Source of the DNA: Thermodesulfovibrionales bacterium
GTDB lineage: Bacteria > Nitrospirota > Thermodesulfovibrionia > Thermodesulfovibrionales > SM23-35
Reading direction: 5' to 3'
Assembly (NCBI GenBank): GCA_020062205.1
Contig: JAGUWT010000284.1
Coordinates: 1 to 43,668, forward strand
DNA length: 43,668 bases
In this document: one piece after another, positions 8,516-41,842 of the stretch
Numbering within the stretch: position 1 is the first letter of the stretch
Layout of the letters: each line of letters begins with the position of its first letter
Made by a program: the position numbers and the translations under genes
The notes under the pieces: generated by a model
Told to the model about the DNA's origin: nothing
Database searches by the model: none
The model's input: only the letters and a program-made list of their open reading frames with translations

Positions 8516-8590
8516 AAGGAAAACATATGCCTACGAAAAAGTATGGGACGAATCCTGTTAGGGTGCCACTTAAAGCAACCGGAAGTTATA

Positions 8591-9502: not shown

Positions 9503-10279
9503 ATGAGAATTTTAATATTGATGTATCACATGATATCGAGGACGAACATAAAAATGGAAAAGAGGTATGCCCTTGTTCCCGAGAGATTCAGGCAGCAGTT
9601 AAGGTATCTTAAATGGAGAGGGTATGCACCGATTAGCCTTGACGATTTACACAACTATTTTATTAATAAGACTATTAGCCTTCCTGATAAACCAGTAATC
9701 ATAACCTTTGACGACGGATATATGGATAACTACGAAAATGCCTTACCGATCCTGAAAGAACAGAATGTCCCGGCTACCCTCTTCATAGTCAGTGGGCTTA
9801 TCAATAAAACGAACCGATGGATAATAAGCGAAGGATATCCAGAAAGACCGCTAATGGGATGGACCGAAATTCGAGAAATGCAGAAGAATGGTATGACGAT
9901 CGGTTCCCATACTGTAAATCATTGCCGTTTAACTACCTTAGATCTTAAAGATGCAAAACGGGAGATCGAGGATTCAAAGAAATTCCTCGAAGATAGCCTC
10001 GGTACTCAGATCAACCATTTTGCTTATCCCTATGGTGATATGAAGGATTCTATTATGAATATGACAAGAGATGCAGGATACAGGACAGCCTGTTCTACGA
10101 GGTCCGGGTTTAATTCAGAACAAGTAAGTCCCTATGAATTAAGGAGGCTTGAGATTTATGGTACAGATACCCTTTGGAAATTTGCATTAAAACTAACCTA
10201 TGGGACAAACGATGGCAACTTACTCCTTCCTGCAAGATACTACATGAAAAGAATGGCTGAGAGACTTAATCGTTATTAG
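9503..10279 (+). CDS. polysaccharide deacetylase (CE4 / NodB homology domain)
   Basis: Motifs ILMYHMI, ITFDDGYMDNYENALPILKE, ATLFIV, IGSHTVNHCRL and FAYPYGD. The stop lies inside the GTTATT repeat arm. Confidence 0.9.
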   Translation: MRILILMYHMISRTNIKMEKRYALVPERFRQQLRYLKWRGYAPISLDDLHNYFINKTISLPDKPVIITFDDGYMDNYENALPILKEQNVPATLFIVSGLINKTNRWIISEGYPERPLMGWTEIREMQKNGMTIGSHTVNHCRLTTLDLKDAKREIEDSKKFLEDSLGTQINHFAYPYGDMKDSIMNMTRDAGYRTACSTRSGFNSEQVSPYELRRLEIYGTDTLWKFALKLTYGTNDGNLLLPARYYMKRMAERLNRY

Positions 10280-10757: not shown

Positions 10758-11654
10758 TTGGACATAAGCGTAATAATCTGCACATACAATCGAAGCAATC
10801 ATCTCAGGAATGTCTTAAGAAGTCTTTCTGAACAGGTTGTCCCCAATAATCTGGAATGGGAAATTGTTGTAGTTGATAATAATTCAACCGATGATACCAT
10901 TGAAGTTGTGAAAGACTTTGGTAATGATTCAAGCCTTCCAATAAAGTATATAAAAGAAGAAAAGCAGGGTCTTTCTCATGCTCGTAATAGAGGTATTTTA
11001 GAGTCAAAAGGTAAGTATGTAGCCTTCACCGATGATGATGCTATCACAGATCGGAACTGGGTAACATCATTGTATGAGGCATTTCAGAAATACGGATGTG
11101 ATTGTGTTGGGGGGCGTATATATCTGAGGTTTGCAAGCGAGATGCCTCGATGGTTAAAAAGAGAGTTATGGGGATTTTTCGGCTTTTTGGATCATGGTCA
11201 CAGGGCATTTGAGGTGATTGACGAGCATATTTTTGGCGGGAATATGGCATTTTCAAAAGAGATCCTAAATAAGTCTGGTTTTTTCAACCCGAACCGCGGT
11301 CGAACCGCAACTGTATTAATAGGTGGAGAGGAGTTGGAGTTACTAAAAAGAGTAAAAAGTGCAGGAGGCAAGATAATATATCAACCAGCAGCCTTAGTTT
11401 ATCACGTTATAGGTTCTGAAAAACTTAAGAAGCAGTATTTCAGAAAACTGCATTATTACGAAGGAGTAATATCTGGAAAATCTTTTAGTGAGCCAATTAG
11501 GCGGCATATTACTGGGATACCGCTATTTATTTTTTCACAGTTCATAAGAAGTGTGATGAACTATTTTCGAAACCCTGCCCTAAGAATGCAGATGAATATT
11601 TGGTGGTTTTTAGGGTTTATGAGGGGAAGAATGGCCCAATTCAGAAAGAGCTGA
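10758..11654 (+). CDS. family 2 glycosyltransferase
   Basis: TTG start. Motifs ISVIICTYNRSNHL, VVVDNNSTDDT and FTDDDA. Confidence 0.85.
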   Translation: MDISVIICTYNRSNHLRNVLRSLSEQVVPNNLEWEIVVVDNNSTDDTIEVVKDFGNDSSLPIKYIKEEKQGLSHARNRGILESKGKYVAFTDDDAITDRNWVTSLYEAFQKYGCDCVGGRIYLRFASEMPRWLKRELWGFFGFLDHGHRAFEVIDEHIFGGNMAFSKEILNKSGFFNPNRGRTATVLIGGEELELLKRVKSAGGKIIYQPAALVYHVIGSEKLKKQYFRKLHYYEGVISGKSFSEPIRRHITGIPLFIFSQFIRSVMNYFRNPALRMQMNIWWFLGFMRGRMAQFRKS

Positions 11655-11665
11655 AGCACTGTGAC

Positions 11666-12403
11666 ATGAAGAACAGGCGGGAAAAGATAAAGGTTGCCAT
11701 TCTGACGAGCCCTTCCTTCCGGAGCCCAAGGGTGTTGGCTGAGGGTTTGCAACGGATGCTTTCGAGGGTAGGTATCGAAAGCCATATTTTTTACGAAGGT
11801 ATTCCGCTCATTTATGCGCCAACTAATTGGAGGGGAAGAAATTTTGTTAAAAACGCTTTAACCACCATTAGATACAGGTATGAAATACATTCGCTTAAGT
11901 CCTATAATCTGACAAAAAAAGAGGAATTTATAGCCTTGATAGATTTTGAGCGGAAAAGCTATGAAGAGTATAGGAGGGTCCAGTTAGAAGCCCTGTCAGA
12001 ACTCGGTATTAAGACCGTGGTCTTAGATTCCGATTACACCTTCTCCGAAATAGCCGAAGTCTACAGAAAATGCAGCATCTATTTTTTGGCTTTTTATGAA
12101 GCTTTTGGCGTTCCAATAGCTGAACTGCAGGCCTGTGGTGCTTGTATATTTTCCCCATCCCCGGCATGGCCAATGGCCCATAGGTTAGACGCACGTTGCC
12201 CAGATGCGTCAGCGTGGAAGTTGTCTGAAAACTTTATTATATATGACTCGAAAGCCGATTTAATAAATAAGATGAAAGAAATACGAGAAAACTACAATCC
12301 CTATCAAGTGTTCGACAATTTTGTCAAGAACTATCCGCATTTTTACGAAGGGGATACGGCCGCTCTAAGTGAAATAATTCATAAACTCTCTTCAAAATTC
12401 TGA
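11666..12403 (+). CDS. hypothetical protein with a GT-B-like C-terminal motif
   Basis: The likely start is ATG 11666 (MKNRREKIKVAILTS). The listed start at 11600 overlaps the previous gene. YEAFGVPIAELQACGACIF resembles the E-x7-E region of GT4 enzymes, but the protein is short and divergent. Confidence 0.4.
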   Translation: MKNRREKIKVAILTSPSFRSPRVLAEGLQRMLSRVGIESHIFYEGIPLIYAPTNWRGRNFVKNALTTIRYRYEIHSLKSYNLTKKEEFIALIDFERKSYEEYRRVQLEALSELGIKTVVLDSDYTFSEIAEVYRKCSIYFLAFYEAFGVPIAELQACGACIFSPSPAWPMAHRLDARCPDASAWKLSENFIIYDSKADLINKMKEIRENYNPYQVFDNFVKNYPHFYEGDTAALSEIIHKLSSKF

Positions 12404-13509: not shown

Positions 13510-14061
13510 ATGGCACCGACTGTTACAGAAAAGAAAAAATATACCTACGAAGATTACCTTAAAACCCCTGAGGACGAGATATATGAACTCATAGAAGGAG
13601 AATTGCTTATGACACCATCGCCTATACCAAAGCATCAAAGGATTTCAAGGGAGCTTGAATTCGAAATATTAAAATTTGTTAAGGCGAATGACCTTGGAGA
13701 AGTCTTTTATGCACCGTGTGATGTATATCTTGATGATGAGAATGTTATACAGCCTGATATACTGTTTATCTCAAAAGAGAGGTTGAATATTATAGGTGAA
13801 AAGAACATACAGGGCGCACCAGACCTTGTGGTAGAGATAATCTCAGAGAACACTGCCTACAGGGACCTTGTGCAAAAAAAGAAATTATACGCAAGATTTG
13901 GTGTAAAGGAATACTGGATAGTAATTCCAAAGGAAGAATTAATAGAGGTTTATATTTTAAAGGATAACACCTACATGCTTTATAAGACCTATAGTAAGGA
14001 TGACACCCTTGAATCACCCTATCTGAAGGACTTGAAGATAGGATTAAAAAGTATATTCTAA
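13510..14061 (+). CDS. Uma2 family endonuclease (DUF820, restriction-endonuclease-like fold)
   Basis: Motifs YTYEDYLKTPEDEIYELIEGELLMTPSP, KHQRIS, IQPDILFISKERL, GAPDLVVEIIS and FGVKEYWIV. Confidence 0.9.
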   Translation: MAPTVTEKKKYTYEDYLKTPEDEIYELIEGELLMTPSPIPKHQRISRELEFEILKFVKANDLGEVFYAPCDVYLDDENVIQPDILFISKERLNIIGEKNIQGAPDLVVEIISENTAYRDLVQKKKLYARFGVKEYWIVIPKEELIEVYILKDNTYMLYKTYSKDDTLESPYLKDLKIGLKSIF

Positions 14062-14127
14062 ACCATCCTGAACTTAATAACTTAGTAACTTGATACTAAG
14101 AAGTTCATAAGTAATACCACATAATTG

Positions 14128-14212
14128 GTCATTCGCGCTTGTCGGGAATCTTTCTTCAAGAAGGATGCCGGACTTCGACGTGAGCTCAGTCGAACGACAA
14201 GCCGGCATGACA
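14128..14212. repeat. palindromic intergenic element (TGTCATT...AATGACA family), copy 2
   Basis: It starts gtcattcgcgcttgtcgggaatctttctt and shares gcttgtcgggaatc(c/t)ttctt with copy 1. It ends caagccggcatgaca. Internal hairpin: ttcgac-gtgagctca-gtcgaa. Confidence 0.65.
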
Positions 14213-14332
14213 GAAGAAAAAGAGTCATGTGACCTTACTCATGGTCTCATTAGTAACTCGATAACTCAATTACTTAGTTTAGGGATGAGAATGAGAAGAG
14301 GTTATGGGTTTCAAGTTATGAGTATAGGTTAT

Positions 14333-14359
14333 TTGAATAGATGGAATTTGTGATATAAT
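14333..14359 (+). promoter_or_regulatory. possible extended -10 promoter for the UPF0175 gene
   Basis: TGaTATAAT at 14351-14359, with TTGAAT at 14333-14338. The spacer is only 15 nt. Confidence 0.3.
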
Positions 14360-14404
14360 AGTCAAATTAGAATTTTTGAAATTTTGAAACTTAGGAGCAA
14401 GATT

Positions 14405-14701
14405 ATGAATATACTAGAAAAGGAAGCTAAGGCACTTATAAAAAGGGGTATATATAAAGATGAAAAATCACTTTTTGAAGATGCCCTTAGAGCATTACTT
14501 GTATCTAAGCCTGGCCTGAGAGTGGAAGCTGCCATAGAGCTTTATAAAGCAAAAGAAATATCTCTTAAGAAGGCAGCAGAAATTGCATCTCTTGATATAG
14601 AGTCCTTCAAAGACGAGTTGTCAAGGAGGGGATTAAAAATAGAATTAGAACCCCCTTCCAAGGACATTCTGGATAAAGGGGTGTCTTTGCTCCTCAAATG
14701 A
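14405..14701 (+). CDS. UPF0175-family antitoxin-like protein
   Basis: RBS aggag, then ATG 14405. The C-terminal AIELYKAKEISLKKAAEIASLDIESFKDELSRRGL matches the UPF0175 helix-turn-helix signature. No partner toxin ORF follows. Confidence 0.7.
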   Translation: MNILEKEAKALIKRGIYKDEKSLFEDALRALLVSKPGLRVEAAIELYKAKEISLKKAAEIASLDIESFKDELSRRGLKIELEPPSKDILDKGVSLLLK

Positions 14702-14786
14702 TTAATGACAATCATCTTTGCCATTATTGTTACCTCTTTGAAATAGTATATTAAACCTGCAAACTCTCAATAATTAATCAATCAAA

Positions 14787-15854
14787 ATGTCTAATCCTCT
14801 CGTCAGTGTCGTAATCCCTACTTATAATACCGAAAAGTACATAACCGAAGCCCTGAAAAGCGTGTTCCAACAAAAGTACAGGCCGATTGAGGTTATCGTT
14901 GTTGACGATGGTTCTACTGATAATACGGCAGAGATTATAAGAAAATATGTTCAAACTGTTCAAAGCGTTCGAGATGTAGACTCGTGTCAAACAAGTGAAA
15001 CCATCGAACAACTCGAACAAGCTAAGCGATCCAACGAGCGGAGCGATCGAACAATACGAACATCTCCCACAAGCAAAGCGATCGAACTTATCTATATTTA
15101 TCAGAAAAACGGTGGCCGGGCCAGCGCAAGAAACACGGGTATCAGAGCTGCCAGAGGTAAATATGTTGCCTTCCTCGACAGTGATGATCTCTGGACATTG
15201 TGGAAACTGGAAAAGCAGGTTCATACAATGGAGGAGAATACCAAAATCGATTTCCTCTTTGGTGATAAACAACGGTTTTCAGATGGAGGGAAAATAGTCA
15301 TACATTCCATGTTCCAAAAAAATGGTTATGATGAAAAATTTTTTGGAGATCCCCTCTATGTTCGAAATGCCTATCAGAAGCTCTTGAAAGCCAATTTCAT
15401 CCCTACCGGAACCGTGATTTTGAGAAGAGACTGTTTTGAGAGGACAGGTTTGTTTGATGAAAGCATCTATGCAGAGGATTATGAATTCTGGCTCAGGATC
15501 GCCCTTTTTAACACAATAGGGTATGCCAATGAATTATGGGAATTAGAAAGGGATCGTGAGGGGAGTGGTTCAAAAAACCTTAAGGCAGTCTATTTATCAA
15601 ATATTCAAACCCTTGAGAAGCACGAGAGAGCATATCGAGAGAGATTATCGAAACTGCATATTAATCTCAATAACATAATCCGTGATGCCTATAGAGACAC
15701 AGGATATTTTTTCCTCACCCATGACAAATTGCTGGCCAGGGATTGTTTTAAAAAAAGCCTTTTGAGGGGCTTTCAAATAAAAACTTTGTTCTATTGGATC
15801 GCCACCTTTTTAGGGGTATCCTTTGTTAAAGCAATTCAACAGGCAAGACAATAG
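14787..15854 (+). CDS. family 2 glycosyltransferase carrying an in-frame ~45-aa repeat-derived insertion
   Basis: Motifs VSVVIPTYNTEKYITEAL, VIVVDDGSTDNT, NGGRASARNTGI, FLDSDD and AEDYEFWLR. The low-complexity segment VQTVQSVRDVDSCQTSETIEQLEQAKRSNERSDRTIRTSPTSKA lies between the DxS and ARN motifs. Confidence 0.85.
   Translation: MSNPLVSVVIPTYNTEKYITEALKSVFQQKYRPIEVIVVDDGSTDNTAEIIRKYVQTVQSVRDVDSCQTSETIEQLEQAKRSNERSDRTIRTSPTSKAIELIYIYQKNGGRASARNTGIRAARGKYVAFLDSDDLWTLWKLEKQVHTMEENTKIDFLFGDKQRFSDGGKIVIHSMFQKNGYDEKFFGDPLYVRNAYQKLLKANFIPTGTVILRRDCFERTGLFDESIYAEDYEFWLRIALFNTIGYANELWELERDREGSGSKNLKAVYLSNIQTLEKHERAYRERLSKLHINLNNIIRDAYRDTGYFFLTHDKLLARDCFKKSLLRGFQIKTLFYWIATFLGVSFVKAIQQARQ
14949..15088. 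repeat. GTTCRA/TCGAAC 9-nt-periodic palindromic element, copy in the GT2 coding sequence
   Basis: Left units are gttcaaact gttcaaagc gttcgagat. Right units include atcgaacaa ctcgaacaa, then cgaacaata cgaacatct and gcgatcgaac. It is homologous to 30891-30978. Confidence 0.75.
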
Positions 15855-15855
15855 C

Positions 15856-17625
15856 ATGCAATTCGTGGGTGTTGTAGACAGTGACAAAGATATTCCCCTG
15901 AAACTCTCTGAAAAGGGTTTCCAACGTATTATTCAGGACGAGGGTTTTGCTCTTTTCATCAGGAATGGAAATCCCCAAAAAGATTTCTCCTTGTCAGAAT
16001 ACCATGATATCCATCTCCTGATAATTGGCCATATAACGAATGGAGAAGAGATAATCAAAAGAGACGATATCTCATACAAGGAAACGAAAACGGTTTTATG
16101 CGAATCTCTTATTCGAAATTATCTTGACAGTGGGGAACAAGCATTCTCACAGCTTGATGGTTCTTATGTAATTATATTGTGGGATGGAAATAAAAAGGGA
16201 CTTTATGTCCAAAGAGATTGTTACGGAACAAAATGTTTGTATTACTACATCACCAAAGACAAAGGTGTCATTTTCTCAAACAGTCTGGACATCCTCATAA
16301 GAACGAAAAAGCAAAAAGACATAGCAAGAAAGGCACTTCATGAATATCTTCGATTTTTAGACATATCGCCTCCATATACCATATATGAAAATGTTTTTTC
16401 CCTTGAGCCAGAGAAAACATTGATTGTTCACGATGGAGAAGTGTTTCTCAAAGACATAGCAGAACAGAGCATAAACGAACAGAAGAGTATCACCTTATCA
16501 GAAGCGGTAGAAGATTTTAAACGTCTGATGCTCCAGAGTATTGAGAGGAGGATACAACATTCACAGCGAACAGGGGTTTTTCTAAGCGGAGGGATTGATT
16601 CTGCACTCATTTGTGCCTTGGCATCAAAAATCAATAGCAATCTCAAGGTCTATACTGTTGGTTTTGATAACCCTCGATATGATGAATCGAATATTGCTCA
16701 CGATATCACAACGTTTCTTGGATTGGAACATCACATTTTTAAATTTAGTATTAAAGAAGACCTCCAGGCGTTTACTGATTTTGTTTCTACTATACCTTCA
16801 CCATTTGCTGATCCAGCTGCTATTCCGACATTCCAATGTTTTCAAAAGATGTATAACAGTATAGATGTAGTATTAGATGGAACTGGAGCCGATTCTTTGA
16901 TTGGCATTATGCCAGCACGGCACATAAGATTTATTCTGAGATATTTGCGTTATATTCCTTACAGATTAAGACATTTTATTTCTTCCCTATTGAAACAAAC
17001 TACAATATTATCATCCTACTGCGATCTTTTTAATTTTACAGAACCTGAAGAATTACTAATTCGATGGAGAGGATGGACAAAAGAAGAGATATCAGTACTT
17101 TGCAACCAAAGATGTGATTTATCACATACAAGATTTTATAAAGTTTTTGCTGAAAATTCTTCAAAACATCCTTATGAGCTTTATGGAATATTATTAAGTG
17201 CTATGCCTGATGATAGGATAATTCAGTTGTCAACACAATTTAGATTACATATTGCTTTCCCATTTTGGGATAAGAACGTTAGACAATTTGGTGAAAATCT
17301 TCCAATAAAATATAAACACAACGATGGTACGTCTAAATTACTATATAAAAAAATATTACAAGAGTTTATCCCTCAAAGTATATGGGATCGACCAAAACAT
17401 GGTTTTGATTATCCTTTTGAAAACTTGCTCAAATATAATGACTATGAACTGCCAAAGTCTTTTCTTTCTAAGGACGCTATTGATGAACATGGGCTCTTTG
17501 ACTTTTCAATTGTGGAGAAATATGTACAGAGTTTTTTGAATAGTGATGATTCACTGAAATTCAAAATATGGGCTTTAGTTCTTTTTCAGGCATGGTATCA
17601 CAAACACTATAAGATCATACAATGA
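15856..17625 (+). CDS. asparagine synthase (AsnB) family protein lacking the N-terminal Cys nucleophile
   Basis: ATG 15856 lies 1 nt after the upstream stop. The N-terminus is MQFVGVV instead of MCGI. The Ntn-like domain is retained (LDGSYVIILWDG, RDCYGTKCLYYY), and so is the PP-loop GVFLSGGIDSALI. Confidence 0.85.
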   Translation: MQFVGVVDSDKDIPLKLSEKGFQRIIQDEGFALFIRNGNPQKDFSLSEYHDIHLLIIGHITNGEEIIKRDDISYKETKTVLCESLIRNYLDSGEQAFSQLDGSYVIILWDGNKKGLYVQRDCYGTKCLYYYITKDKGVIFSNSLDILIRTKKQKDIARKALHEYLRFLDISPPYTIYENVFSLEPEKTLIVHDGEVFLKDIAEQSINEQKSITLSEAVEDFKRLMLQSIERRIQHSQRTGVFLSGGIDSALICALASKINSNLKVYTVGFDNPRYDESNIAHDITTFLGLEHHIFKFSIKEDLQAFTDFVSTIPSPFADPAAIPTFQCFQKMYNSIDVVLDGTGADSLIGIMPARHIRFILRYLRYIPYRLRHFISSLLKQTTILSSYCDLFNFTEPEELLIRWRGWTKEEISVLCNQRCDLSHTRFYKVFAENSSKHPYELYGILLSAMPDDRIIQLSTQFRLHIAFPFWDKNVRQFGENLPIKYKHNDGTSKLLYKKILQEFIPQSIWDRPKHGFDYPFENLLKYNDYELPKSFLSKDAIDEHGLFDFSIVEKYVQSFLNSDDSLKFKIWALVLFQAWYHKHYKIIQ

Positions 17626-17723
17626 TTTTTGAAGACTTTAAGGAAAGTTCTCTATAAGGTTAGGTCAAAATTATTCATAGTTGAGAGGGCTTTGCCATTT
17701 GAGCTTTCACTACAGAGGTAAAC

Positions 17724-18992
17724 ATGACACATTCTTTAGGAGAATTTAGGCCCCAACTGGTACTTAATGTTATGGATAGGGAATTGGGACTATTAGGTTA
17801 TGTGGTTATAGACCGTACTATTGATGGATGCTCTTCTGGGGGTATAAGAATGACGTCGGATTTGACCCTCGACGAAGTAGCGAATCTTGCCAGAGAAATG
17901 ACCCTTAAATTTGGGTTTTTAAACATTCCTTGTGGAGGTGCAAAGGCAGGTATTATAGCTTCATCATCCCTTTCTAAGGAGAAGAGGAGGCAAGTATTAT
18001 TAGGATTTGGAAAAAGTTTGGGCCCACTTTTACTAAGTGGAATTTACCGACCCGGCACAGATATGGGAACATCTCCAGAAGATCTATATTATATTTGGAG
18101 AGGAGCTGGAAGAAAAGTTCGACCAGAGGTATTCCAAAATACTGAATCAGGATATTATGCTGCATTAACTGTTTTTATTACTGCAGAGAAATTAATCGAC
18201 TATCTGGGATTAAGTCTGCCTAATTGTTCTGTGGCTATAGAAGGGTTTGGAAAATTAGGATTATCAGTAGCTAGACTTTTTTCAGATGCCTGTGCAAAAA
18301 TTGTCGCCATTTCTACTATCGAAGGAGCAATATACAATCCTGAGGGTCTAAATATTTCCAAGCTAATAACATTAAAAAATAAATTTAATGATAAAGTTAT
18401 AGCAAATTACCGCGATGCTGAGATGATAACAAAAGAAGAATTATTGACTTTGGATGTGGATGTTTTAATCCCTTGCGCAGGACCCGATACTCTTAATCTT
18501 GCGAATATACCACACTTAAAGGCAAAGATAATCGTTCCCGGAGCTAATATAGCCGCTACTGGCGAAGCCGAAAATCTTATGTTTGAAAGGGGAATACATT
18601 ACGTCCCCGGGTTTGTTTCAAATTGTGGTGAGATATTAAAACATTTTTTGCTGGCTCAAGGTCTTGGCGAAAAGGATATCCAAAAAATGATAAAGGAAAG
18701 GTTCGGTAGAAAGATTTCTAATTTACTGGAAATTTCTTATAAACGGGGGATACCATTAGGGCGAATAGCGAGGAAGATTTCTTGGCAAAGAGTGAAGAAC
18801 ATGGAGGAAAGGCGAGAGAGTGATCTGAGAGATAAGGGCCTTTTATTAAAAATGCTGACAAAATTATCTAGATCAAACTTCCTACCCTATAAAATCACAG
18901 TGATGTTAAAATGGTTTATGAAATTCATGACCAATCCATATGTTAATAGGACGTTACCCAAAGATTACAAAGGCGATAGTTCCGCCATATAA
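17724..18992 (+). CDS. Glu/Leu/Phe/Val dehydrogenase family protein
   Basis: RBS agagg. Motifs SSGGIRM, LAREMTLKFGFLNIPCGGAKAGI (both conserved Lys present) and the dinucleotide fold IEGFGKLGLSVA. Confidence 0.85.
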   Translation: MTHSLGEFRPQLVLNVMDRELGLLGYVVIDRTIDGCSSGGIRMTSDLTLDEVANLAREMTLKFGFLNIPCGGAKAGIIASSSLSKEKRRQVLLGFGKSLGPLLLSGIYRPGTDMGTSPEDLYYIWRGAGRKVRPEVFQNTESGYYAALTVFITAEKLIDYLGLSLPNCSVAIEGFGKLGLSVARLFSDACAKIVAISTIEGAIYNPEGLNISKLITLKNKFNDKVIANYRDAEMITKEELLTLDVDVLIPCAGPDTLNLANIPHLKAKIIVPGANIAATGEAENLMFERGIHYVPGFVSNCGEILKHFLLAQGLGEKDIQKMIKERFGRKISNLLEISYKRGIPLGRIARKISWQRVKNMEERRESDLRDKGLLLKMLTKLSRSNFLPYKITVMLKWFMKFMTNPYVNRTLPKDYKGDSSAI

Positions 18993-19006
18993 GATTAGTG
19001 AAATCG

Positions 19007-20077
19007 ATGAAAATTTTAGTCCCAGATCACTATAGTAAAGAACATATAGAAAAGATTAAAGCGGTCTCAAAAGATATAGAGGTAGTCGGGTTGGGAGTAC
19101 AAAAACAATTTCAAGGTTTTCATGCATTATTATATAAGTTTTTACCTCTTACATTATACCGCAAATTTGCTCCCTTCCTCCATAAACAAAAACCTGTCTA
19201 TAAGGTTACAATTGATGAAAAAGATCTTAATGGGCCGCTAAACGATGTTTATATCCTCTTATCTTCTTGGATCATAAATTCAGATATTCTGGCCAACTTG
19301 TTACCATTTCTCCCTAATTTGCGGTGGATTCATTCAACTGTAACTGGTGTAAATCATCTGCTGTGTCCTGACATACTCAATAATAATATCCAAATTACGA
19401 GCTCTAAGGGTGTTCACAGTGTAGCGGTTGCAGAATTTGTTTTAGCTTTGATGCTTGCATTTAGTAAGAGAATTCCAGAACATATCCATCTTCAACAAAA
19501 AAAGAAGTGGCAGGTATTAAAGGCTGGCGAACTTGCTGATAAAACAGTTGGAATAGTGGGCTTTGGGAATATAGGCCGGGAAATAGCTAAAAAGGCCAGG
19601 ATTATGGGAATGAAAGTAGTTGCTATTAGAAGAAATTCGGTGGAGAGTAACAATGTCGATATATTGCTTTCTGCAGAAGGATTACAGGAATTATTGATTG
19701 TCTCTGATTTTGTAGTAATTTCTGCTCCTTTGACTAAAGAGACTTCTGGAATTATTGGAGAAGTAGAATTGAGAACAATGAAGAAAACTGCATATCTCAT
19801 TAATATTTCCCGGGAAGAGATCGTGCAAAAAGAGGCTTTGATGAGAGCATTAAAACAGAAGTGGATTGCCGGAGCCTGTATCGATGTCTTTCATCAACAA
19901 CCTCTCCTCCAGAATAGTCCATACTATTCACTGCCTAATTTAATTATCACTCATCATAGTGCTTATTTTACACCTGATGCAAATAAAAAGATTTTCGACT
20001 TTTTTCTTACTAACCTGAAAAGATTTATCACTGGAGACGAGCTTCTTGGTAAGGTAGATAAGAAAAGCGGTTATTAA
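19007..20077 (+). CDS. D-isomer-specific 2-hydroxyacid dehydrogenase family protein
   Basis: MKILVPDH start; GTG 18998 is also possible. NAD fold VGIVGFGNIGREIAKKA, Arg in NISREEIV, then IDVFHQQP (Gln where Glu is usual) and ITHHSAY (catalytic His). Confidence 0.8.
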   Translation: MKILVPDHYSKEHIEKIKAVSKDIEVVGLGVQKQFQGFHALLYKFLPLTLYRKFAPFLHKQKPVYKVTIDEKDLNGPLNDVYILLSSWIINSDILANLLPFLPNLRWIHSTVTGVNHLLCPDILNNNIQITSSKGVHSVAVAEFVLALMLAFSKRIPEHIHLQQKKKWQVLKAGELADKTVGIVGFGNIGREIAKKARIMGMKVVAIRRNSVESNNVDILLSAEGLQELLIVSDFVVISAPLTKETSGIIGEVELRTMKKTAYLINISREEIVQKEALMRALKQKWIAGACIDVFHQQPLLQNSPYYSLPNLIITHHSAYFTPDANKKIFDFFLTNLKRFITGDELLGKVDKKSGY

Positions 20078-20146
20078 GTCTAATATATCCAGAAGGCTAA
20101 CTGAGATTTTTACCCCCTATTTACTTTAGTTTTACCAACCAGTTTT

Positions 20147-21325
20147 ATGAAGAATTGGTCATTTCAACCTCATATGGAAAAGCCAATCAAGGTTTGCATG
20201 TTTACTTATTATTTTCCCCCTCAATATAGCGGAGCGGCATTGCAGGCAATCAGCCTGGCAAAAAAGCTCAGAAACAGGAGGGTCGAAGTTTTCTTTTTAA
20301 CTGTGAATCATGATGATCTGCCCGAAACTGATGAGGTAGAGGGTTTTAAGGTGCATAGAATAAAAGAGGGAAAGGGGAAATGGGTGGAATTTCTTCTATG
20401 GAAAAATATGTGGAACTTGTTAAGACATCAAAAAAGCGAGTTTGATATAGTCCACTCCCATGGGGCATACCTTCGAAATAGTTTTGTTGGTCCACTTTCG
20501 AAACTTATAGGAAAAAAAAGCCTCGTCAAAGTGAGTCTTTCAAATAATGACCTTCAAGGACTTGGAAATGGAAAGAGTGGACGATTACATAAATGGTTTC
20601 TCACAATGATTGATAGATGTGTCTCTATCAGTAAGGATATTACCAGTGAATTACGATCTTACGGGTTAACACAAGAAAAAATAAGAGAGATACCAAATGG
20701 TGTTGATACGGAAAGATTCTGTCCTGTGTCTGCTGAGGAGAAGATTATCCTGCGAAGGAAGGCAGGGTTGCCTGAAAAGGGTCTGATGTTGCTTTACGTC
20801 GGCGGAATTAGTAAACGTAAAAATGTGAAATGGCTGATAGAAAGGTGGGATAAATTTAACCGTAATTACCCAGGGTTTCTCGTGATCGTTGGGCCTATAA
20901 GCCGTGAAGACAAAGATAAGAGCATGTATAACAGTCTTAAAGCCTATGAGGATAAGTTAAGAGGTAAGCTCTTCATTATTCAGTTTATAGATAAAATAGA
21001 AGACTTTTACAAAATGGCTGATACCTTTATTTTACCTTCAACCAATGAAGGGATGCCCAATGTGGTGTTGGAGGCTATGGCTTGCGGCCTTCCATGTCTT
21101 GTCAACAAGGTGAGTGGTGCTGAAGACATCATTAATGGAGACAATGGTCTGCTTTTTGATGTTCAGAAACCTGAGACCTTACTGGGCGCATTGATTAAAT
21201 TGAATGACGCATCTTTAATATCTGAGATAGGCGTGAAAGCTCGTAAGACGATAATAAATGGATTTTCTCTTGAAAGTGTTGCTGAAAAGTACGTAAATCT
21301 TTATGAAGAAATGCTAAAGAGATGA
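20147..21325 (+). CDS. glycosyltransferase family 4 (GT-B)
   Basis: Motifs FPPQYSGAA, NGVDTERF and STNEGMPNVVLEAMACGLPCLVNKVSGAEDII. An alternative start at ATG 20174 is possible. Confidence 0.85.
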   Translation: MKNWSFQPHMEKPIKVCMFTYYFPPQYSGAALQAISLAKKLRNRRVEVFFLTVNHDDLPETDEVEGFKVHRIKEGKGKWVEFLLWKNMWNLLRHQKSEFDIVHSHGAYLRNSFVGPLSKLIGKKSLVKVSLSNNDLQGLGNGKSGRLHKWFLTMIDRCVSISKDITSELRSYGLTQEKIREIPNGVDTERFCPVSAEEKIILRRKAGLPEKGLMLLYVGGISKRKNVKWLIERWDKFNRNYPGFLVIVGPISREDKDKSMYNSLKAYEDKLRGKLFIIQFIDKIEDFYKMADTFILPSTNEGMPNVVLEAMACGLPCLVNKVSGAEDIINGDNGLLFDVQKPETLLGALIKLNDASLISEIGVKARKTIINGFSLESVAEKYVNLYEEMLKR

Positions 21326-21421
21326 TTCTTATGCACTATATCTGCAATTTAAATCACAAACAGAGCGGAGAAAAATATAGGTAGACTTGATGAATATATT
21401 TAAAGCATAAACAAACATAAG

Positions 21422-22693
21422 ATGTCCGTACGTGATTTAATTACATTTACAGTCATACTCGGTAGTCTTCCATTTTGCTTTTTGAGGCCATGGATTGGCA
21501 TACTGGTATTCTCCTGGATAGGATACATGAATCCCCATCGATTCACATGGGGAGCAGCCTATGATTTCCCCTTTGCTTTTATTGTTGCCATAACAACACT
21601 TGCAGGCTACATTTTCACTAAAGATAAGGATAAACTTTACATGGAAAAGGAAACTATTTTGATTATTTTACTCTGGATTGTTTTTACACTAACAAGTTTT
21701 TCTGCCTTCTATCCTGTTCAAGCATGGCAGATGTGGGGAAAAACATCTAAAATCCTTTTAATATCTCTTATTACAATACCTCTCTTCATTGATAAGAAAA
21801 GACTCCGCTACCTTCTACTGACAATTGCCCTTTCCCTCGGATTTCTCGGGATAAAAGGGGGTATTTTTTCCATAGCAAAGGCGGGAGCCTATAATGTGAG
21901 GGGACCAGAAGGCTCATTTATAGGTGGAGAAGGGGACTTTGGATTGGCTCTGAATATGACGTTACCTCTGCTTTTCTATCTAGCAAAGGAAGAAACGAAT
22001 AAGAAACTAAAAATCCTTCTTCAATCAGCTTTTGTTATGTCAATCTTATCTGTAATATTTACCTGTCGCCGTGGTGCCTTTTTGGGATTAGCTGCAGTTA
22101 TTTTAATATTAGCGTTAAAAGCGAATAAGAAGATAATAAGTGCTGCGATTTTATCTTTAGCACTTATCATTGCTCCATATTTTTTAACAGAGAAGTGGTT
22201 TGGAAGGATAGAGACAATAAGTTCTTATGAAGAAGATTCCTCTGCCATGGGAAGGATTAATGCATGGAAGATGGCATGGAATGTGGCAAGGGATAGACCA
22301 TTAATGGGCTCAGGATTTGAGGGGCTTAAGTGGGGAACCGTAGAACGATATTCACCAGCTCCTGATGCAACAGCAGGAGATGTTCACAGTATTTATTTTG
22401 AGGTACTCGGAGAACATGGTTTTATTGCATTTGGACTTTTTATTGCCCTACTGCTATCAGCCATGTCGAGCCTCCGGAAACTCAAGAAGACATTTAAGAA
22501 TAATCCGTCGTATAAATGGTTATGCAATTATGTTGACATGATTCAGGTAAGCATTATTGCTTATATGGTCTGTGGAACATTTCTTGGAAGGGCATATTTT
22601 GACCTTTTTTACCATTTAGTAGTTATAGTGGTGATTTTAAAAGTACTCGCCAAGAAGGAACTCATCAACCAGCAAAACTCTTTAAGCCAGTGA
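21422..22693 (+). CDS. O-antigen ligase / Wzy-like polytopic membrane protein (of the kind associated with exosortase loci)
   Basis: About 10 hydrophobic segments. The loop RINAWKMAWNVARDRPLMGSGFEG and HSIYFEVLGEHGFIAFGLF are typical of the O-antigen ligase domain. Confidence 0.8.
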   Translation: MSVRDLITFTVILGSLPFCFLRPWIGILVFSWIGYMNPHRFTWGAAYDFPFAFIVAITTLAGYIFTKDKDKLYMEKETILIILLWIVFTLTSFSAFYPVQAWQMWGKTSKILLISLITIPLFIDKKRLRYLLLTIALSLGFLGIKGGIFSIAKAGAYNVRGPEGSFIGGEGDFGLALNMTLPLLFYLAKEETNKKLKILLQSAFVMSILSVIFTCRRGAFLGLAAVILILALKANKKIISAAILSLALIIAPYFLTEKWFGRIETISSYEEDSSAMGRINAWKMAWNVARDRPLMGSGFEGLKWGTVERYSPAPDATAGDVHSIYFEVLGEHGFIAFGLFIALLLSAMSSLRKLKKTFKNNPSYKWLCNYVDMIQVSIIAYMVCGTFLGRAYFDLFYHLVVIVVILKVLAKKELINQQNSLSQ

Positions 22694-23974: not shown

Positions 23975-24583
23975 ATGGATAACAATAGGAAAAATCTTTA
24001 CTGGCATAAACATTCTGTGACAGTAGAAGATCGATGGGAAAGTTTTGGATACAAGAGTTGTGTATTATGGTTCACTGGTTTATCGGCATCTGGTAAATCT
24101 ACCCTGGCCAATTCTCTGTGTAGAGAACTCCATGCCATAGGGGTTAATTGTTATGTATTAGATGGTGATAATATCCGTCACGGACTGAATAAAGATCTTG
24201 GATTCAGTCCTGAAGACAGAAAAGAAAATATCCGCAGAATTGCAGAAGTTGCAAAACTCTTTGTCGATGCTGGATTAATAATCATGACTGCATTTATATC
24301 ACCTTTTACAGAAGATCGAAATGACGCAAAAAAACTTTTCAAGGAAGGTGAATTTATTGAGATATATGTAAAATGTCCACTATCAGAGTGTGAAAAACGT
24401 GATCCAAAAGGGGTTTATAAAAGGGCAAAGGCAGGAGAAATAAAAGAATTTACGGGTATTTCATCTCCCTATGAAAAACCTGGAAATCCTGAGATAGTGT
24501 TAGAGACTGACAAGATGTCTGTAAATGAGTGTGTAGAGAGTGTTTTAGATTGTCTGGTTAAAGGCGGATACATTGTTCGATAA
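23975..24583 (+). CDS. cysC: adenylyl-sulfate (APS) kinase
   Basis: RBS aggag. Motifs VLWFTGLSASGKSTLA (P-loop), LDGDNIRHGLNKDLGFSPEDRKENIRRIAEVAKLF and ISPF. Confidence 0.95.
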   Translation: MDNNRKNLYWHKHSVTVEDRWESFGYKSCVLWFTGLSASGKSTLANSLCRELHAIGVNCYVLDGDNIRHGLNKDLGFSPEDRKENIRRIAEVAKLFVDAGLIIMTAFISPFTEDRNDAKKLFKEGEFIEIYVKCPLSECEKRDPKGVYKRAKAGEIKEFTGISSPYEKPGNPEIVLETDKMSVNECVESVLDCLVKGGYIVR

Positions 24584-30269: not shown

Positions 30270-32216
30270 ATGTGTGGCATAGTCGGAATCATAAATACCG
30301 TTTTAACACCTGAAAGGTCTCTTTTAGAGAAGATGTGTAGGATAATGACCCACAGAGGGCCTGATGGGGAGGGGTGTTACATTGAAGGACCTATCGCTCT
30401 TGGACACAGGAGATTGAGCATTATAGACCTTGAGGGTGGAAAACAACCAATGAGTAATGAAGATGACACAGTGTGGATTACCTTCAATGGAGAAATATAT
30501 AACTTTCCCGATGTTCAAAGAGAACTTGAAAAAAAAGGACATCGATTTAAAACAAGAAGCGATACTGAAGTGATTATTCATGCATATGAAGAATATGGGA
30601 AAGAGTGCATAAAGTATTTCAGGGGGATGTTTGCATTCGGAATTTGGGATAGTAAAAAAAAGGAACTCTTTCTTGCACGTGACCGTCTTGGGAAGAAGCC
30701 TCTTTACTATTATGTTGATGACAGGAGTTTTATCTTTGCCTCAGAAATAAAGGCAATCCTTCAGGATGAATATATAAAAAGAGAACTTGATGTAAAGGCA
30801 CTGGCTGATTACTTTACCTATCATTACGTTCCGTTTCCTGAAACAATATTCAAAGGCATACATAAACTGCCACCAGGACATTTAATGACTGTTCGAATTG
30901 TTCAAGATGTTCGAGACGTTCAAGTCGTTTCGAACAAGTGTAATGATCGAACGAGCGAAGCGATCGAACATATCGAATTTACTATTCATCAATACTGGGA
31001 TATTGAATATAAACCGGACTATTCTCTATCAGAACAGGAGTGGGTAGAGGCATTAAAGGAAAAACTGAAAGAAGCAGTCAGGATCAGGCTTATCAGTGAT
31101 GTGCCACTTGGGGCGTTTCTCAGTGGAGGGATAGATTCAAGCACTGTTGTTGCATTCATGAGTATGGTTCAGAACACACCTGTCAAAACATTCTCAATAG
31201 GGTTCAAAGAAGAGGATTTCAGCGAAGTGAAATATGCACGGGAGGTTGCCAAGAGGTTTGGAACTGAACATCAGGAAATGGTGGTCGAGCCCGATGCTAT
31301 AGAGGTATTACCAAAGCTCGCATGGGAATTTGACGAACCTTTTGCAGATTCTTCAGCCATACCTACCTATTATGTATCTAAAATGGCGAGGAAGTATGTA
31401 ACCGTCATCCTTTCTGGTGATGGCGGTGATGAAACCTTTGCTGGCTATAGGAGGTATCTATGGGCAAGGGATATGCATAAATACGACTGGATACCTCTGC
31501 CTTTGAGGGCAATAGTATTCGGAATTCCTGCTGCACTACTCCCAGATGGTATGAGAGGCAAAGGTATGCTCAGGCACCTTTCAAACGGTCCCTTTGAGCG
31601 ATATGCAGGTCTTAATACCTTTGGAGAACTGAACTCCCTCAAAAATCTCTTGAGCACAGATGTTCTGAACGAAGTCCAAAAGAGACAAAATGGGAGGTTG
31701 CATGACTATGCCTTTCTCAAGAAGTATTATGACTTCTGTAAGCATGACGACTATCTCACAAAGATACAATACATGGACACAAAGACCTACCTTGCTGAGG
31801 ATATTCTAACCAAGGTAGATAGGGCAAGCATGCTCTGTAGTCTGGAGACCCGTGCTCCATTACTTGATCATGAGGTAATTGAACTTGTTGCCAGAATTCC
31901 ATCATCCATGAAGATAAAAGATGGTGAGACGAAATATATCCTCAAAAAGGCAATGGATGGAATCCTCCCTGATACGATTTTGTATAGAAAAAAAATGGGC
32001 TTTGGGGTGCCTCTTATATATTGGTTTAAGAAAGATTTAACACAATATGCACGTGAGGTTCTTCTTTCTCAGGAAACTAAACATCGAGGAATATTTAATC
32101 AGAGCTATATCAAGAATATTTTGGAGAGACATCAGAAAAAGGGAAGAGACCTGAGTGCTAAGATATGGGCACTTCTTTTTTTCGAACACTGGTGCAGGAA
32201 CTGGCTTGATACATAA
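30270..32216 (+). CDS. asnB: asparagine synthase (glutamine-hydrolysing) family amidotransferase, exosortase-locus type, with an in-frame repeat insertion
   Basis: MCGIVGII (Cys2 nucleophile), HRRLSIIDL, RDRLGKKPLYYY and the PP-loop GAFLSGGIDSSTV. The extra segment IVQDVRDVQVVSNKCNDRTSEAIEHIE follows PPGHLMTV. Confidence 0.9.
   Translation: MCGIVGIINTVLTPERSLLEKMCRIMTHRGPDGEGCYIEGPIALGHRRLSIIDLEGGKQPMSNEDDTVWITFNGEIYNFPDVQRELEKKGHRFKTRSDTEVIIHAYEEYGKECIKYFRGMFAFGIWDSKKKELFLARDRLGKKPLYYYVDDRSFIFASEIKAILQDEYIKRELDVKALADYFTYHYVPFPETIFKGIHKLPPGHLMTVRIVQDVRDVQVVSNKCNDRTSEAIEHIEFTIHQYWDIEYKPDYSLSEQEWVEALKEKLKEAVRIRLISDVPLGAFLSGGIDSSTVVAFMSMVQNTPVKTFSIGFKEEDFSEVKYAREVAKRFGTEHQEMVVEPDAIEVLPKLAWEFDEPFADSSAIPTYYVSKMARKYVTVILSGDGGDETFAGYRRYLWARDMHKYDWIPLPLRAIVFGIPAALLPDGMRGKGMLRHLSNGPFERYAGLNTFGELNSLKNLLSTDVLNEVQKRQNGRLHDYAFLKKYYDFCKHDDYLTKIQYMDTKTYLAEDILTKVDRASMLCSLETRAPLLDHEVIELVARIPSSMKIKDGETKYILKKAMDGILPDTILYRKKMGFGVPLIYWFKKDLTQYAREVLLSQETKHRGIFNQSYIKNILERHQKKGRDLSAKIWALLFFEHWCRNWLDT
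30891..30978. repeat. GTTCRA/TCGAAC 9-nt-periodic palindromic element, copy in the asnB coding sequence
   Basis: Units are gttcgaatt gttcaagat gttcgagac gttcaagtc gtttcgaac aagtgtaat gatcgaacg agcgaagcg atcgaacat atcgaat. That is ten 9-nt units, about 30 codons. Confidence 0.75.
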
Positions 32217-40510: not shown

Positions 40511-41842
40511 ATGAAACCTCTCATCAGAAATATCCTGTTGCCCTTCCATGAATATCTCAAAGGACACATGACGCTCAAAATGCTTAAAGACCTTGAAAGA
40601 ACGCAATGGCTTACGACCGAAGAATTAAGACAATTACAGAGACAAAAATATAAAGCCATTGTTGCATTTGTTCAGGAAAATGTCCCTTTCTACAGAGATT
40701 TGTTGGCATCACAATCAGATGGTGTCCAATTCCCTTACCTGAGGAAAAACGATATCCGAAACAATTTCAAGAGGATGTGTTCAGAAAAGGCGAATGGACT
40801 CGTTCGATCCAATACAGGCGGTTCTACGGGAGAACCATTGATATTCTATCTTGGTAAAAGGCGCATTAGTGCAGATGTAGCTGCAAAGATAAGAGCTACG
40901 AAGTGGTGGGGCGTTGATATCGGTGACAAAGAAGTGGTTATCTGGGGATCACCAGTTGAATTTACAAAGCAGGATAGAATACGGACGTTCAGGGACTGGC
41001 TCTTCAGGACAAGGCTCCTCTCCGCCTTTGATATGACAGAGGAGACAATGTTTGAATATCTAAATTTTATGAGAGAATTTAAGCCACTCCATGTATTCGG
41101 TTATCCAAGTTCAATACACGTGCTGTGTAAATATGCACGGAAAAAAAATATCAGGCTCGATGACATAGGTGTAAAGGTAGTTTTTTGTACTGCTGAAAGG
41201 CTCTATGATGATCAACGAGAGTTTATTTCCGAGGTATTTTCAGCACCTGTTGCCAATGGCTATGGAGGAAGAGATTCTGGGTTCATTGCCCATGAATGTC
41301 CTGAAGGGAGAATGCATATCACCGATGAGAACATTATGGTAGAAATTGTTGTCAGCACCGGAAATATTTTGCAACCAGGAGAGACAGGAGAGATTGTCAT
41401 AACCCATCTTGAATCTCATGATTTCCCCTTTATCAGGTATAAAACCGGTGACATCGGAGCGCTATCTGATGAAACGTGTCCATGCGGGAGAGGACTGAGC
41501 GTTTTGAAAGCAATTGAAGGAAGGGGTACTGACTTTATCGTTACTCCTAAAGGTAAGATAATGCATGGGCTTTCACTTATATATGTAGTTAGAGATACAG
41601 AAGGGATTGAGGAGTTCAAAATAGTTCAGGAAGACTACGACAAGATTAACCTCTTTCTCTCAGTCAATGAGAAATTTTCAGAGAAACATGCCTTGGGAAT
41701 AAAAAAGGGTTTTTCAAAGAGACTGGGCGCAGATGTAAACATTACCATTCATTATGTAGATAAAATCTCTCACGAGAAATCTGGAAAATATCGATATGTT
41801 GAGTCACATGTACAACAGCCATATGCCCAAATCCATAGGTAA
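40511..41842 (+). CDS. phenylacetate-CoA ligase / CapK-like adenylate-forming enzyme
   Basis: Motifs SNTGGSTGEPLIFY, GYPSS, IRYKTGDIG, GRGTDFIV and a C-terminal SGKYRYV. Confidence 0.8.
   Translation: MKPLIRNILLPFHEYLKGHMTLKMLKDLERTQWLTTEELRQLQRQKYKAIVAFVQENVPFYRDLLASQSDGVQFPYLRKNDIRNNFKRMCSEKANGLVRSNTGGSTGEPLIFYLGKRRISADVAAKIRATKWWGVDIGDKEVVIWGSPVEFTKQDRIRTFRDWLFRTRLLSAFDMTEETMFEYLNFMREFKPLHVFGYPSSIHVLCKYARKKNIRLDDIGVKVVFCTAERLYDDQREFISEVFSAPVANGYGGRDSGFIAHECPEGRMHITDENIMVEIVVSTGNILQPGETGEIVITHLESHDFPFIRYKTGDIGALSDETCPCGRGLSVLKAIEGRGTDFIVTPKGKIMHGLSLIYVVRDTEGIEEFKIVQEDYDKINLFLSVNEKFSEKHALGIKKGFSKRLGADVNITIHYVDKISHEKSGKYRYVESHVQQPYAQIHR

Follow-up and report, generated by a model that had tools for sequence, protein, structure and literature searches.

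Why would an exopolysaccharide (EPS) locus carry, in immediate succession, an asparagine-synthetase-like enzyme, an amino-acid dehydrogenase and a 2-hydroxyacid dehydrogenase, and do these genes belong together? The question arises from contig JAGUWT010000284.1 of a Thermodesulfovibrionales bacterium (assembly GCA_020062205.1), whose 43,668 nucleotides were analysed over their full length and are called the window here. The window is the entire contig and stems from a 1.84-Mb metagenome-assembled genome (MAG) at 74% completeness. Its + strand carries all large open reading frames (ORFs), which jointly form one big exosortase/PEP-CTERM-type EPS locus. An earlier note had described positions 15856-20077 as an AT-rich module of three genes, encoding an AsnB-like enzyme without the glutaminase cysteine and two dehydrogenases, with a possible role in attaching amide substituents to a glycan. 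All three genes were found on the + strand with Pfam hits for each, as listed below together with their neighbours.

15856..17625, + strand: Cys-less AsnB-superfamily amide synthetase ("family A"), start ATG; Asn_synthase 5.9e-51, GATase_7 3.8e-13 (Pfam)
17724..18992, + strand: ELFV-family amino-acid dehydrogenase, non-glutamate, first cassette gene; ELFV_dehydrog 1.8e-36, ELFV_dehydrog_N 6.9e-15 (Pfam)
18998..20077, + strand: divergent D-2-hydroxyacid dehydrogenase (2HADH), second cassette gene; 2-Hacid_dh_C 1.7e-51 (Pfam)
14787..15854, + strand: GT2 glycosyltransferase (Pfam), its stop 1 bp ahead of the AsnB-like start; conserved upstream neighbour in most loci read
20147..21325, + strand: GT4 glycosyltransferase (Pfam); conserved downstream edge of a variable slot
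21422..22693, + strand: exosortase-A-associated O-ligase/Wzy-like protein; TIGR03097, 459 bits, over cut-off

A dehydrogenase pair in a slot of variable content

The three genes are not conserved together. Eight loci with family A members of the AsnB-like gene were read for context (loci are numbered L015 and so on), and no dehydrogenase adjoined it in six, including those of the two closest homologues (64% and 61% identity; syntenic). Dehydrogenase-free homologues in syntenic or related loci span 64%, 61%, 53%, 52%, 44% and 43% identity, and the three-gene unit was rejected on these grounds. Across genomes the trio recurred in one other locus type only (L017/L018), where a sulfotransferase gene is interposed. 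Most of the loci read share a backbone of GT2 gene, AsnB-like gene, variable slot, GT4 gene and DUF5935/Wzy_C gene, of which the GT2, AsnB-like, GT4 and Wzy genes are conserved at 37-72% identity. The content of the slot differs from locus to locus (percentages give AsnB-like identity to the window protein):

P0005 locus, 64%: empty
L015, 61%: GNAT
L073, 53%: methyltransferase plus GNAT
Window: ELFV plus 2HADH
L017/L018, 43%: sulfotransferase plus both dehydrogenases

The dehydrogenases are likewise absent from L016, L072 and L074. Between the window and L017, the dehydrogenases (ELFV 68%, 2HADH 71% identity) are more alike than the remaining genes of the locus (GT4 64%, Wzy-like 54%, AsnB-like 43%, GT2 37%). 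The GT4 and Wzy-like proteins of the window are 64-67% and 54-56% identical, respectively, to those of L017 and L015, and its GT2 is 72% identical to a GT2 fragment in L015. Gene spacing agrees with a backbone AsnB-like gene and a separate pair: the gaps are 1 bp between GT2 and AsnB-like genes, 98 bp between AsnB-like and ELFV genes, 5-14 bp between ELFV and 2HADH genes, and 69 bp between 2HADH and GT4 genes. In this class of exosortase-type EPS locus the AsnB-like gene belongs to the backbone, independent of the pair, and the ELFV and 2HADH genes are a two-gene cassette in the variable tailoring slot. The unit of inheritance is corrected to this cassette plus an independent backbone gene.

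What stood of the proposed module was the link between the two dehydrogenases. Full-length homologues of the 2HADH (~355-360 aa) make up a small subfamily, and every such member with readable context immediately follows an ELFV gene, always one from a single clade. Besides the window, this arrangement was found in L017/L018, L022 (a Nitrospirota MAG), L036, L069, L070 and L071. These six glycan loci are independent of that in the window and keep its gene order; all are polysaccharide loci with flippase, Wzz, Wzy and glycosyltransferase genes. By called genes, the two lie 2-18 bp apart in the window, L017/L018, L069, L070 and L071; in L022 and L036 they are likewise adjacent and keep that order. 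In a maximum-likelihood tree of 41 ELFV proteins, those of the pair loci fell into one nine-member clade (support 100/99). The redox partner within this clade is a 2HADH in seven loci and a GMC oxidoreductase in three (L020, L023, L069), where it replaces or joins the 2HADH; L069 has both. L034 (Dehalococcoidia) had been considered a further instance and was dropped, its ELFV protein being a true outgroup glutamate dehydrogenase (GDH) and its 2HADH having a canonical TPH motif. We found no published description of the ELFV/2HADH pair or of the association of ELFV genes with ligases.

Two of these loci showed further features. In the JGI sequence Ga0209345_10001001 (L020/L021/L037), a block with an ELFV gene of the same clade follows Poly_export and Wzz genes and comprises a TPP enzyme, a GMC oxidoreductase, the ELFV gene, an ATP-grasp gene, a gene for a 225-aa protein, UDP-GlcNAc 2-epimerase, a heparinase II/III-like gene and an Orn/DAP decarboxylase. 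The polysaccharide locus L069 contains an rve-type transposase gene (8574-9404) between its GT4 and Wzy genes.

The AT-richness of the region is real: 15856-20077 has 36.05% G+C, while the genome has 40.8% and the window 40.4%. The figure of 25-33% given earlier for individual 60-nt lines was overstated: the lines average 36% (range 22-52%), and only 29% of them fall within 25-33%. The contrast drawn with the non-ribosomal peptide synthetase (NRPS) gene of the locus was likewise exaggerated, since that gene, at 45.6%, lies above the genome mean. The region falls in the lowest 3.8% of the 4222-bp windows of the MAG, and G+C at third codon positions (GC3; 0.293, 0.305 and 0.311 for the three genes) falls in the lowest 5-9% among 614 long ORFs; composition is at the low end, though less distinct than claimed. 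The low-G+C tract extends beyond 20077, up to an APS kinase gene ending at 24583. A scan of 14000-22000 for promoters and terminators gave counts at or below shuffle expectation and no cassette-specific signals. The pair is rare, and relatives within the phylum gave no help from vertical inheritance: the best ELFV match among 400 other genomes sampled was 36% identical, and the best AsnB-like match among the 40 closest genomes 29%.

Catalytic residues of the three enzymes

The AsnB-like enzyme does lack the glutaminase cysteine. Its N-terminus reads MQFVGVV rather than MCG, and the nucleophile Cys after the initiator Met is absent. The ORF opens upstream at TTG 15823, reading LLKQFNRQDNS, so that there is no upstream in-frame Cys to gain. 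The N-domain is thus Ntn-like but devoid of its nucleophile, and the PP-loop (SGGIDS, residues 244-249) is retained. Among the 120 best of 690 family matches, none begins with MCG and 116 keep SGGxDS. An AF2 model (pLDDT 92.4) has the two-domain AsnB fold with the PP-loop, with Foldseek TM scores of ~0.6-0.7 against 1ct9 and 6gq3; the best folds were CarA, TsnB9 and beta-lactam synthetase (BLS), slightly ahead of AsnB/ASNS. The protein falls below the curated cut-offs for AsnB (TIGR01536, 195.8 against 267.1 bits; NF006949, 89.4 against 499) and, with the nucleophile missing, is not a glutamine-hydrolysing AsnB or class II amidotransferase. Nor is it an XrtA/PEP-CTERM amidotransferase (TIGR03108, 186.8 against 816.9 bits, and no Cys) or a lasso-peptide/macrolactam cyclase (NF033535, 126.8 against 525; NF033561, 28.1 against 300), its neighbours all being glycan genes.

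The product of 17724..18992, the only ELFV gene in the MAG, belongs to the ELFV superfamily (PF00208, 126.5 against a cut-off of 23.4; PF02812, 55.3 against 25.3). Aligned to Thermotoga maritima GDH, it keeps K62, K74, D113 and N275, and the first three are invariant among its aligned homologues. By their roles in the GDH family, we take K62 to be the alpha-carboxylate-binding Lys, K74 the catalytic Lys and D113 the catalytic Asp. Because these residues and the Asn are kept, the substrate should be an alpha-amino or 2-oxo acid. Glutamate dehydrogenase activity was rejected, since the residues that confer GDH specificity are lost: the Lys that binds the gamma-carboxyl group is replaced by Ser38 ('CSSGG' versus 'PxKGG'), and the second side-chain-binding position, a Ser in three GDH-type outgroup rows, by His ('NCGEILKH' versus 'NAGGVxx' plus Ser). 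The true GDH outgroups L034, L035 and L066 retain both the Lys and the Ser. In addition, the Ala of the 'APD' motif is replaced by Gly111, and all NCBIfam GDH models stay far under their cut-offs. Judged from these substitutions, the predicted side-chain pocket is larger than that of GDH and polar.

The 2HADH has both domains of the D-isomer-specific family (PF02826, 174.6 against 25.1; PF00389, 34.9 against 24.6), and its model matches 5mh6 with TMt 0.84. Its true start is likely the ATG at 19007 (MKILVPD), and residues 37-58 form an additional helical hairpin. The catalytic Arg is present (NISRE), and the His is present within 'THH' rather than 'TPH'; 'THH' replaces the canonical motif in all 13 members of the subfamily (window 19880-19960, P0244-P0256), in which the acid/base residue may have shifted by one position. 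The cofactor site is of the NADP type (RR/KK/KR) in the subclade of the window and has an Asp (NAD type) in that of L070/L071. In two subfamily members (P0248, P0255) the canonical catalytic His is itself an Arg or Lys, and the preceding His is invariant. A cofactor regenerator akin to formate dehydrogenase, with Gln for the catalytic Glu, was considered and rejected; the Gln is variable in the subfamily, and NF005750 gave 113.4 against 329 bits.

A candidate building block for the glycan

Three further genes of the locus bear on what the cassette might do.

40511..41842, + strand: PaaK/CapK-like adenylating ligase (NCBIfam matches), sole one in the MAG
30270..32216, + strand: canonical WbpS-type amidotransferase paralogue, N-terminus MCGIVGI; TIGR03108, 720 bits, below the cut-off of 817
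9503-10279, + strand: polysaccharide deacetylase, from the window scan

The view that the three genes are not standard in polysaccharide clusters is half right: XrtA/PEP-CTERM loci normally carry AsnB-type genes, and the window has the canonical MCG copy as well; what is unusual is the dehydrogenase pair.

Wherever context was available, the pair adjoins an ATP-dependent carboxylate-activating enzyme, and the earlier suggestion of amide decoration fits this. The neighbour in the window and L017 is the family A enzyme. Its place is taken in L069, and beside the ELFV gene of L023, by a second Cys-less PP-loop AsnB-like family (MNQIFGY start, LSGGYDS PP-loop, 19.5% identity to family A); in L070 and L071 the neighbours are a CapK-like ligase plus a FemAB/VimA-like Acetyltransf_6 gene, and in L020 an ATP-grasp gene. 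A Cys-less AsnB-superfamily gene is at most two genes from the ELFV gene in four loci of the clade. In sister ELFV clades, ~20 loci (Clostridia, Anaerolineales, Calditrichia, Omnitrophota and others) have the ELFV gene 27-70 bp from a CapK/PaaK-like adenylating ligase. Over its full length, the window ligase at 40511-41842 is 32-34% identical to the two CapK_C ligases on either side of the ELFV gene in L019, and it shares 32% identity with ligases of the ELFV loci L023 and L030; in Pfam it reached 27.3 bits for AMP-binding (cut-off 29.9) and had no CapK_C hit at the thresholds used. It is a candidate alternative partner of the cassette.

Several of these neighbourhoods deserve separate mention. 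The second AsnB-like family (L069:3212-4882 and L023:6206-7918, beside the ELFV gene) has a weak GATase_7 match in Pfam and no Asn_synthase match. The CapK-linked ELFV subfamily, which lacks the GDH specificity residues and spans several bacterial phyla, was seen at the 27-70 bp spacing in L019, L024, L028-L030, L039-L049, L052 and L060, and some of its genes are flanked by two CapK/PaaK-like ligases. Asgard archaeal MAGs also contain more distant members of the ELFV family; a CapK-like gene lies ~4 kb from the ELFV gene, on the opposite strand, in MAGs of Jordarchaeia (Asgard) and in an unclassified archaeal MAG.

From the gene identities, the catalytic residues, the conservation of the pair and its neighbours, we infer a substrate, a direction, a ligase and attachment to the glycan. 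An amino-acid dehydrogenase that recurs amid ligases, and that in one clade is coupled to an enzyme of 2-hydroxy and 2-oxo acids, most plausibly supplies the acid that is ligated. We therefore favour, with moderate confidence, a cassette that would supply an amino acid (or a D-hydroxy acid) to be amide-linked to the glycan. The ELFV enzyme and the 2HADH would together convert one non-glutamate acid back and forth between its L-2-amino, 2-oxo and D-2-hydroxy forms, and the couple could be cofactor-balanced. The building block would then be fixed to the glycan through an amide bond by an ATP-dependent ligase of the locus, here the Cys-less AsnB-like enzyme and/or the CapK/VpsH-like one at 40511. 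As the AsnB-like enzyme keeps the PP-loop half and lacks a glutaminase nucleophile, its most likely reaction is the adenylation of a carboxylate (probably a uronic acid in the repeat unit), which it would join to free ammonia or an amine. The MAG encodes two UDP-sugar dehydrogenases and should therefore be able to make uronic acids. Precedents for such ligations have been published. VpsH (PaaK/CapK-like) is required for addition of Gly to L-GulNAcA on a lipid-linked disaccharide (PMC13463779); the AsnB-type enzymes WbpS, WbqG and PGN_1234 make uronamides, and FemAB-like VimA attaches Ser or Gly to the amine of a deacetylated sugar, genes of these kinds being found in exosortase loci (PMC7468200).

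As to direction, we tentatively lean towards conversion of a hydroxy or oxo acid into the L-amino acid, because the GMC partner is an oxidiser (alcohol to carbonyl), because ELFV genes alone pair with VpsH-type ligases, and because reductive amination is favoured for ELFV enzymes. The reverse, amino acid to hydroxy acid, we regard as somewhat unlikely.

Several observations weigh against this proposal. The ELFV pocket residues vary by subclade (Ser/Thr/Glu/His in the window and L017, Ile/Glu/Gly/Tyr in most others), which suggests that the substrate differs between subclades; it is probably non-uniform and cannot be named. The usual catalytic Glu of the 2HADH is a Gln in the window ('HQQP') and is Q/E/M/V/D across the 13-member subfamily, so that the chemistry may depart from simple 2-hydroxyacid oxidoreduction. 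With six of eight family A loci devoid of the pair, the AsnB-like enzyme does not depend on it. L022 and L036 are truncated by contig ends, and the constant position of the pair beside a ligase refers to five loci. Finally, the roles of the three subfamilies are predicted here from sequence and gene context, in an uncultured organism. The NADP-type site of the 2HADH, together with the scarcity of D-hydroxy acids as metabolites, argues for the reverse direction.

That direction underlies the strongest alternative, in which the ELFV enzyme would deaminate an L-amino acid, the 2HADH would reduce the 2-oxo acid to the D-2-hydroxy acid, and an AsnB- or CapK-like ligase would then N- or O-acylate the glycan. 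We consider this full sequence of steps unlikely, but it accounts for several features. The RR motif of the window 2HADH aligns with 'VRRSG' of Haloferax D-2-hydroxyacid dehydrogenase (D2-HDH) and is typical of NADPH-dependent 2-oxo-acid reductases, and the order ELFV-then-2HADH holds in all loci. The deacetylase at 9503-10279 could leave a free sugar amine to be acylated anew, as with VimE/VimA (PMC7468200). It is also general knowledge that D-hydroxy acids need dedicated synthesis and L-amino acids do not, and that GDH and (R)-2-hydroxyglutarate dehydrogenase work together in the hydroxyglutarate pathway. However, oxidative deamination by ELFV enzymes is thermodynamically uphill, as is generally known, and the GMC oxidoreductase partner in the same clade points to oxidation as the first step. 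Loci with ELFV and CapK genes and no 2HADH would yield a 2-oxo acid only, the cofactor site has the NAD-type Asp in the L070/L071 subclade, and the NRPS adenylation (A) domain of the locus retains Asp235 (FDAS) and hence loads an amino acid, not a hydroxy acid.

It is improbable that the pair, instead of making a free building block, acts on an amino acid whose side chain already joins it to the lipid-linked glycan (for example of the beta-aspartyl or gamma-glutamyl type, installed by the AsnB-like enzyme). The free alpha-amino-acid end would then be swapped on the polymer, via the 2-oxo form, for a D-2-hydroxy acid end by enzymes of the amino-acid-dehydrogenase family. Editing of this kind is fitted by the slot, which otherwise holds substituent-modifying enzymes (GNAT, methyltransferase, sulfotransferase), by the enlarged polar ELFV pocket (Gly111, Ser38, His) and by extra segments in both enzymes. 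An amphipathic-helix scan of the extra segments gave nothing decisive. Slightly less probable still is that the dehydrogenases have no glycan role and are either ordinary genes of central metabolism or a neutral islet acquired horizontally. Their low G+C and GC3 relative to the genome would suit an islet, as would the lack of any ELFV protein above 36% identity in the 400 phylum genomes sampled and the presence of other non-glycan inserts elsewhere in the window (Uma2, UPF0175 and IVP genes); yet the same ordered pair recurs in at least six other glycan loci of different lineages, which is hard to reconcile with this reading, the GDH specificity residues are lost, and the genes run in one direction at close spacing, with terminator- and promoter-like sites no more frequent than by chance. 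Least probable of all is that the pair generates ammonia for the AsnB-like enzyme, the amino acid giving oxo acid and NH3 and the 2HADH re-oxidising the cofactor to leave a plain uronamide: the missing glutaminase Cys, a couple that is redox-neutral on paper and the Cys-less AsnB-superfamily gene close to the ELFV gene in four clade loci speak for it, but the pair is absent from most family A loci and also stands beside CapK- or Fem-type enzymes where no AsnB-like gene is present, a complete MCG-bearing WbpS-type amidotransferase is already in the locus, and free ammonia is generally known to be enough for other NH3-dependent synthetases.

The surrounding locus and the nearest known systems

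The remainder of the locus includes a pyruvyl transferase, sugar-nucleotide enzymes, WecB, multiple GT2 and GT4 genes, stp2- and stp3-type glycosyltransferases, a PcRGLX-like 943-aa protein, a HetI-type phosphopantetheinyl transferase, and an exosortase plus EpsI. The NRPS has the domain order T-C-C-A-T-TE. Its A domain is broken by a single frame break at 36440-36510, where '...LFNVIYR*' resumes as 'YIDEAPRILDGIRQLLVGGDAL' in another frame, which reflects a consensus error in the MAG or else a genuine pseudogene. A D-hydroxy acid made as feed for this NRPS was considered and is unsupported, the A domain with its Asp235 activating an amino acid. The APS kinase gene within the locus (cysC-like, 23975-24583) has a GC3 of 0.25. 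No Pfam sulfotransferase match was obtained among the window ORFs in the scans made; syntenic relatives do carry Sulfotransfer_3 genes, and the unassigned ORFs 2-766 and 11600-12403 might be candidates for this role.

Bacterial polysaccharides change in charge, antigenicity and matrix properties when they carry amino- or hydroxy-acid substituents, and most genes for the supply and attachment of such groups are unassigned. Defined here are a portable ELFV-then-2HADH cassette and an ELFV subfamily in the glycan loci of several bacterial phyla, whose genes adjoin three kinds of ATP-dependent amide ligase. Should the cassette supply a dedicated acid, its presence would mark decorated glycans in the genomes of uncultured organisms, its enzymes would include amino-acid dehydrogenases of new side-chain specificity, and it would help to approach the function of the large Cys-less AsnB-like family of exosortase EPS loci.

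Compared with known systems, the ELFV protein has both Pfam domains, the catalytic Lys and Asp and the alpha-carboxylate Lys and Asn in common with GDH and with leucine and phenylalanine dehydrogenases (2tmg, 1leh; best E-value against the PDB 3e-38). It differs from them in Ser38 for the GDH Lys, Gly111 for Ala, His at the second side-chain position and a C-terminal tail of ~70 residues, and reaches no NCBIfam cut-off. The 2HADH resembles McyI (8wph, 9jnq), which we take to be the 2HADH-family enzyme of microcystin biosynthesis, and Haloferax D2-HDH (5mh5/5mh6) in fold (TM 0.73-0.84), in the kept Arg and His and, as in 5mh5, in an NADP-type site. Unlike these, it has 'THH' for 'TPH', Gln for Glu and the hairpin at 37-58, and it reaches no NCBIfam equivalog cut-off.

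The best fold matches of the AsnB-like enzyme, CarA (1q15), BLS (1jgt) and TsnB9 (7ylz; TM 0.55-0.71), have ATP-dependent acyl-adenylate chemistry in common. CarA and BLS keep a nucleophile-free Ntn-like N-domain as a structural or substrate-binding domain. However, identity to the three is ~15%, they act on small-molecule antibiotic or hydroxamate precursors rather than in glycan loci, and none of their NCBIfam models is reached. Closer in setting are WbpS, WbqG and PGN_1234 (eps_aminotran_1, TIGR03108), with the same two-domain AsnB plus PP-loop architecture, a place in an exosortase EPS locus beside glycosyltransferase and Wzy-like genes and a presumed glycan-carboxylate target; amidotransferases of the WbpS type are typical of XrtA/PEP-CTERM loci (PMC7468200). 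In contrast to them, the AsnB-like enzyme has no Cys2 and would hydrolyse no glutamine, so that its nitrogen nucleophile must come from elsewhere, and it shows only 23-29% identity, over local segments, to the WbpS-type paralogue of the window. The vps cluster of Vibrio cholerae, as described, has no ELFV/2HADH partner (PMC13463779). Its substituent, glycine, needs no special supply, and the window ligase is likened to VpsH by ligase type; it gave no CapK_C match at the thresholds used. Nevertheless, the ligase type of VpsH is the one that most often adjoins the ELFV family (~20 loci), and one such ligase lies in the window, at 40511-41842.

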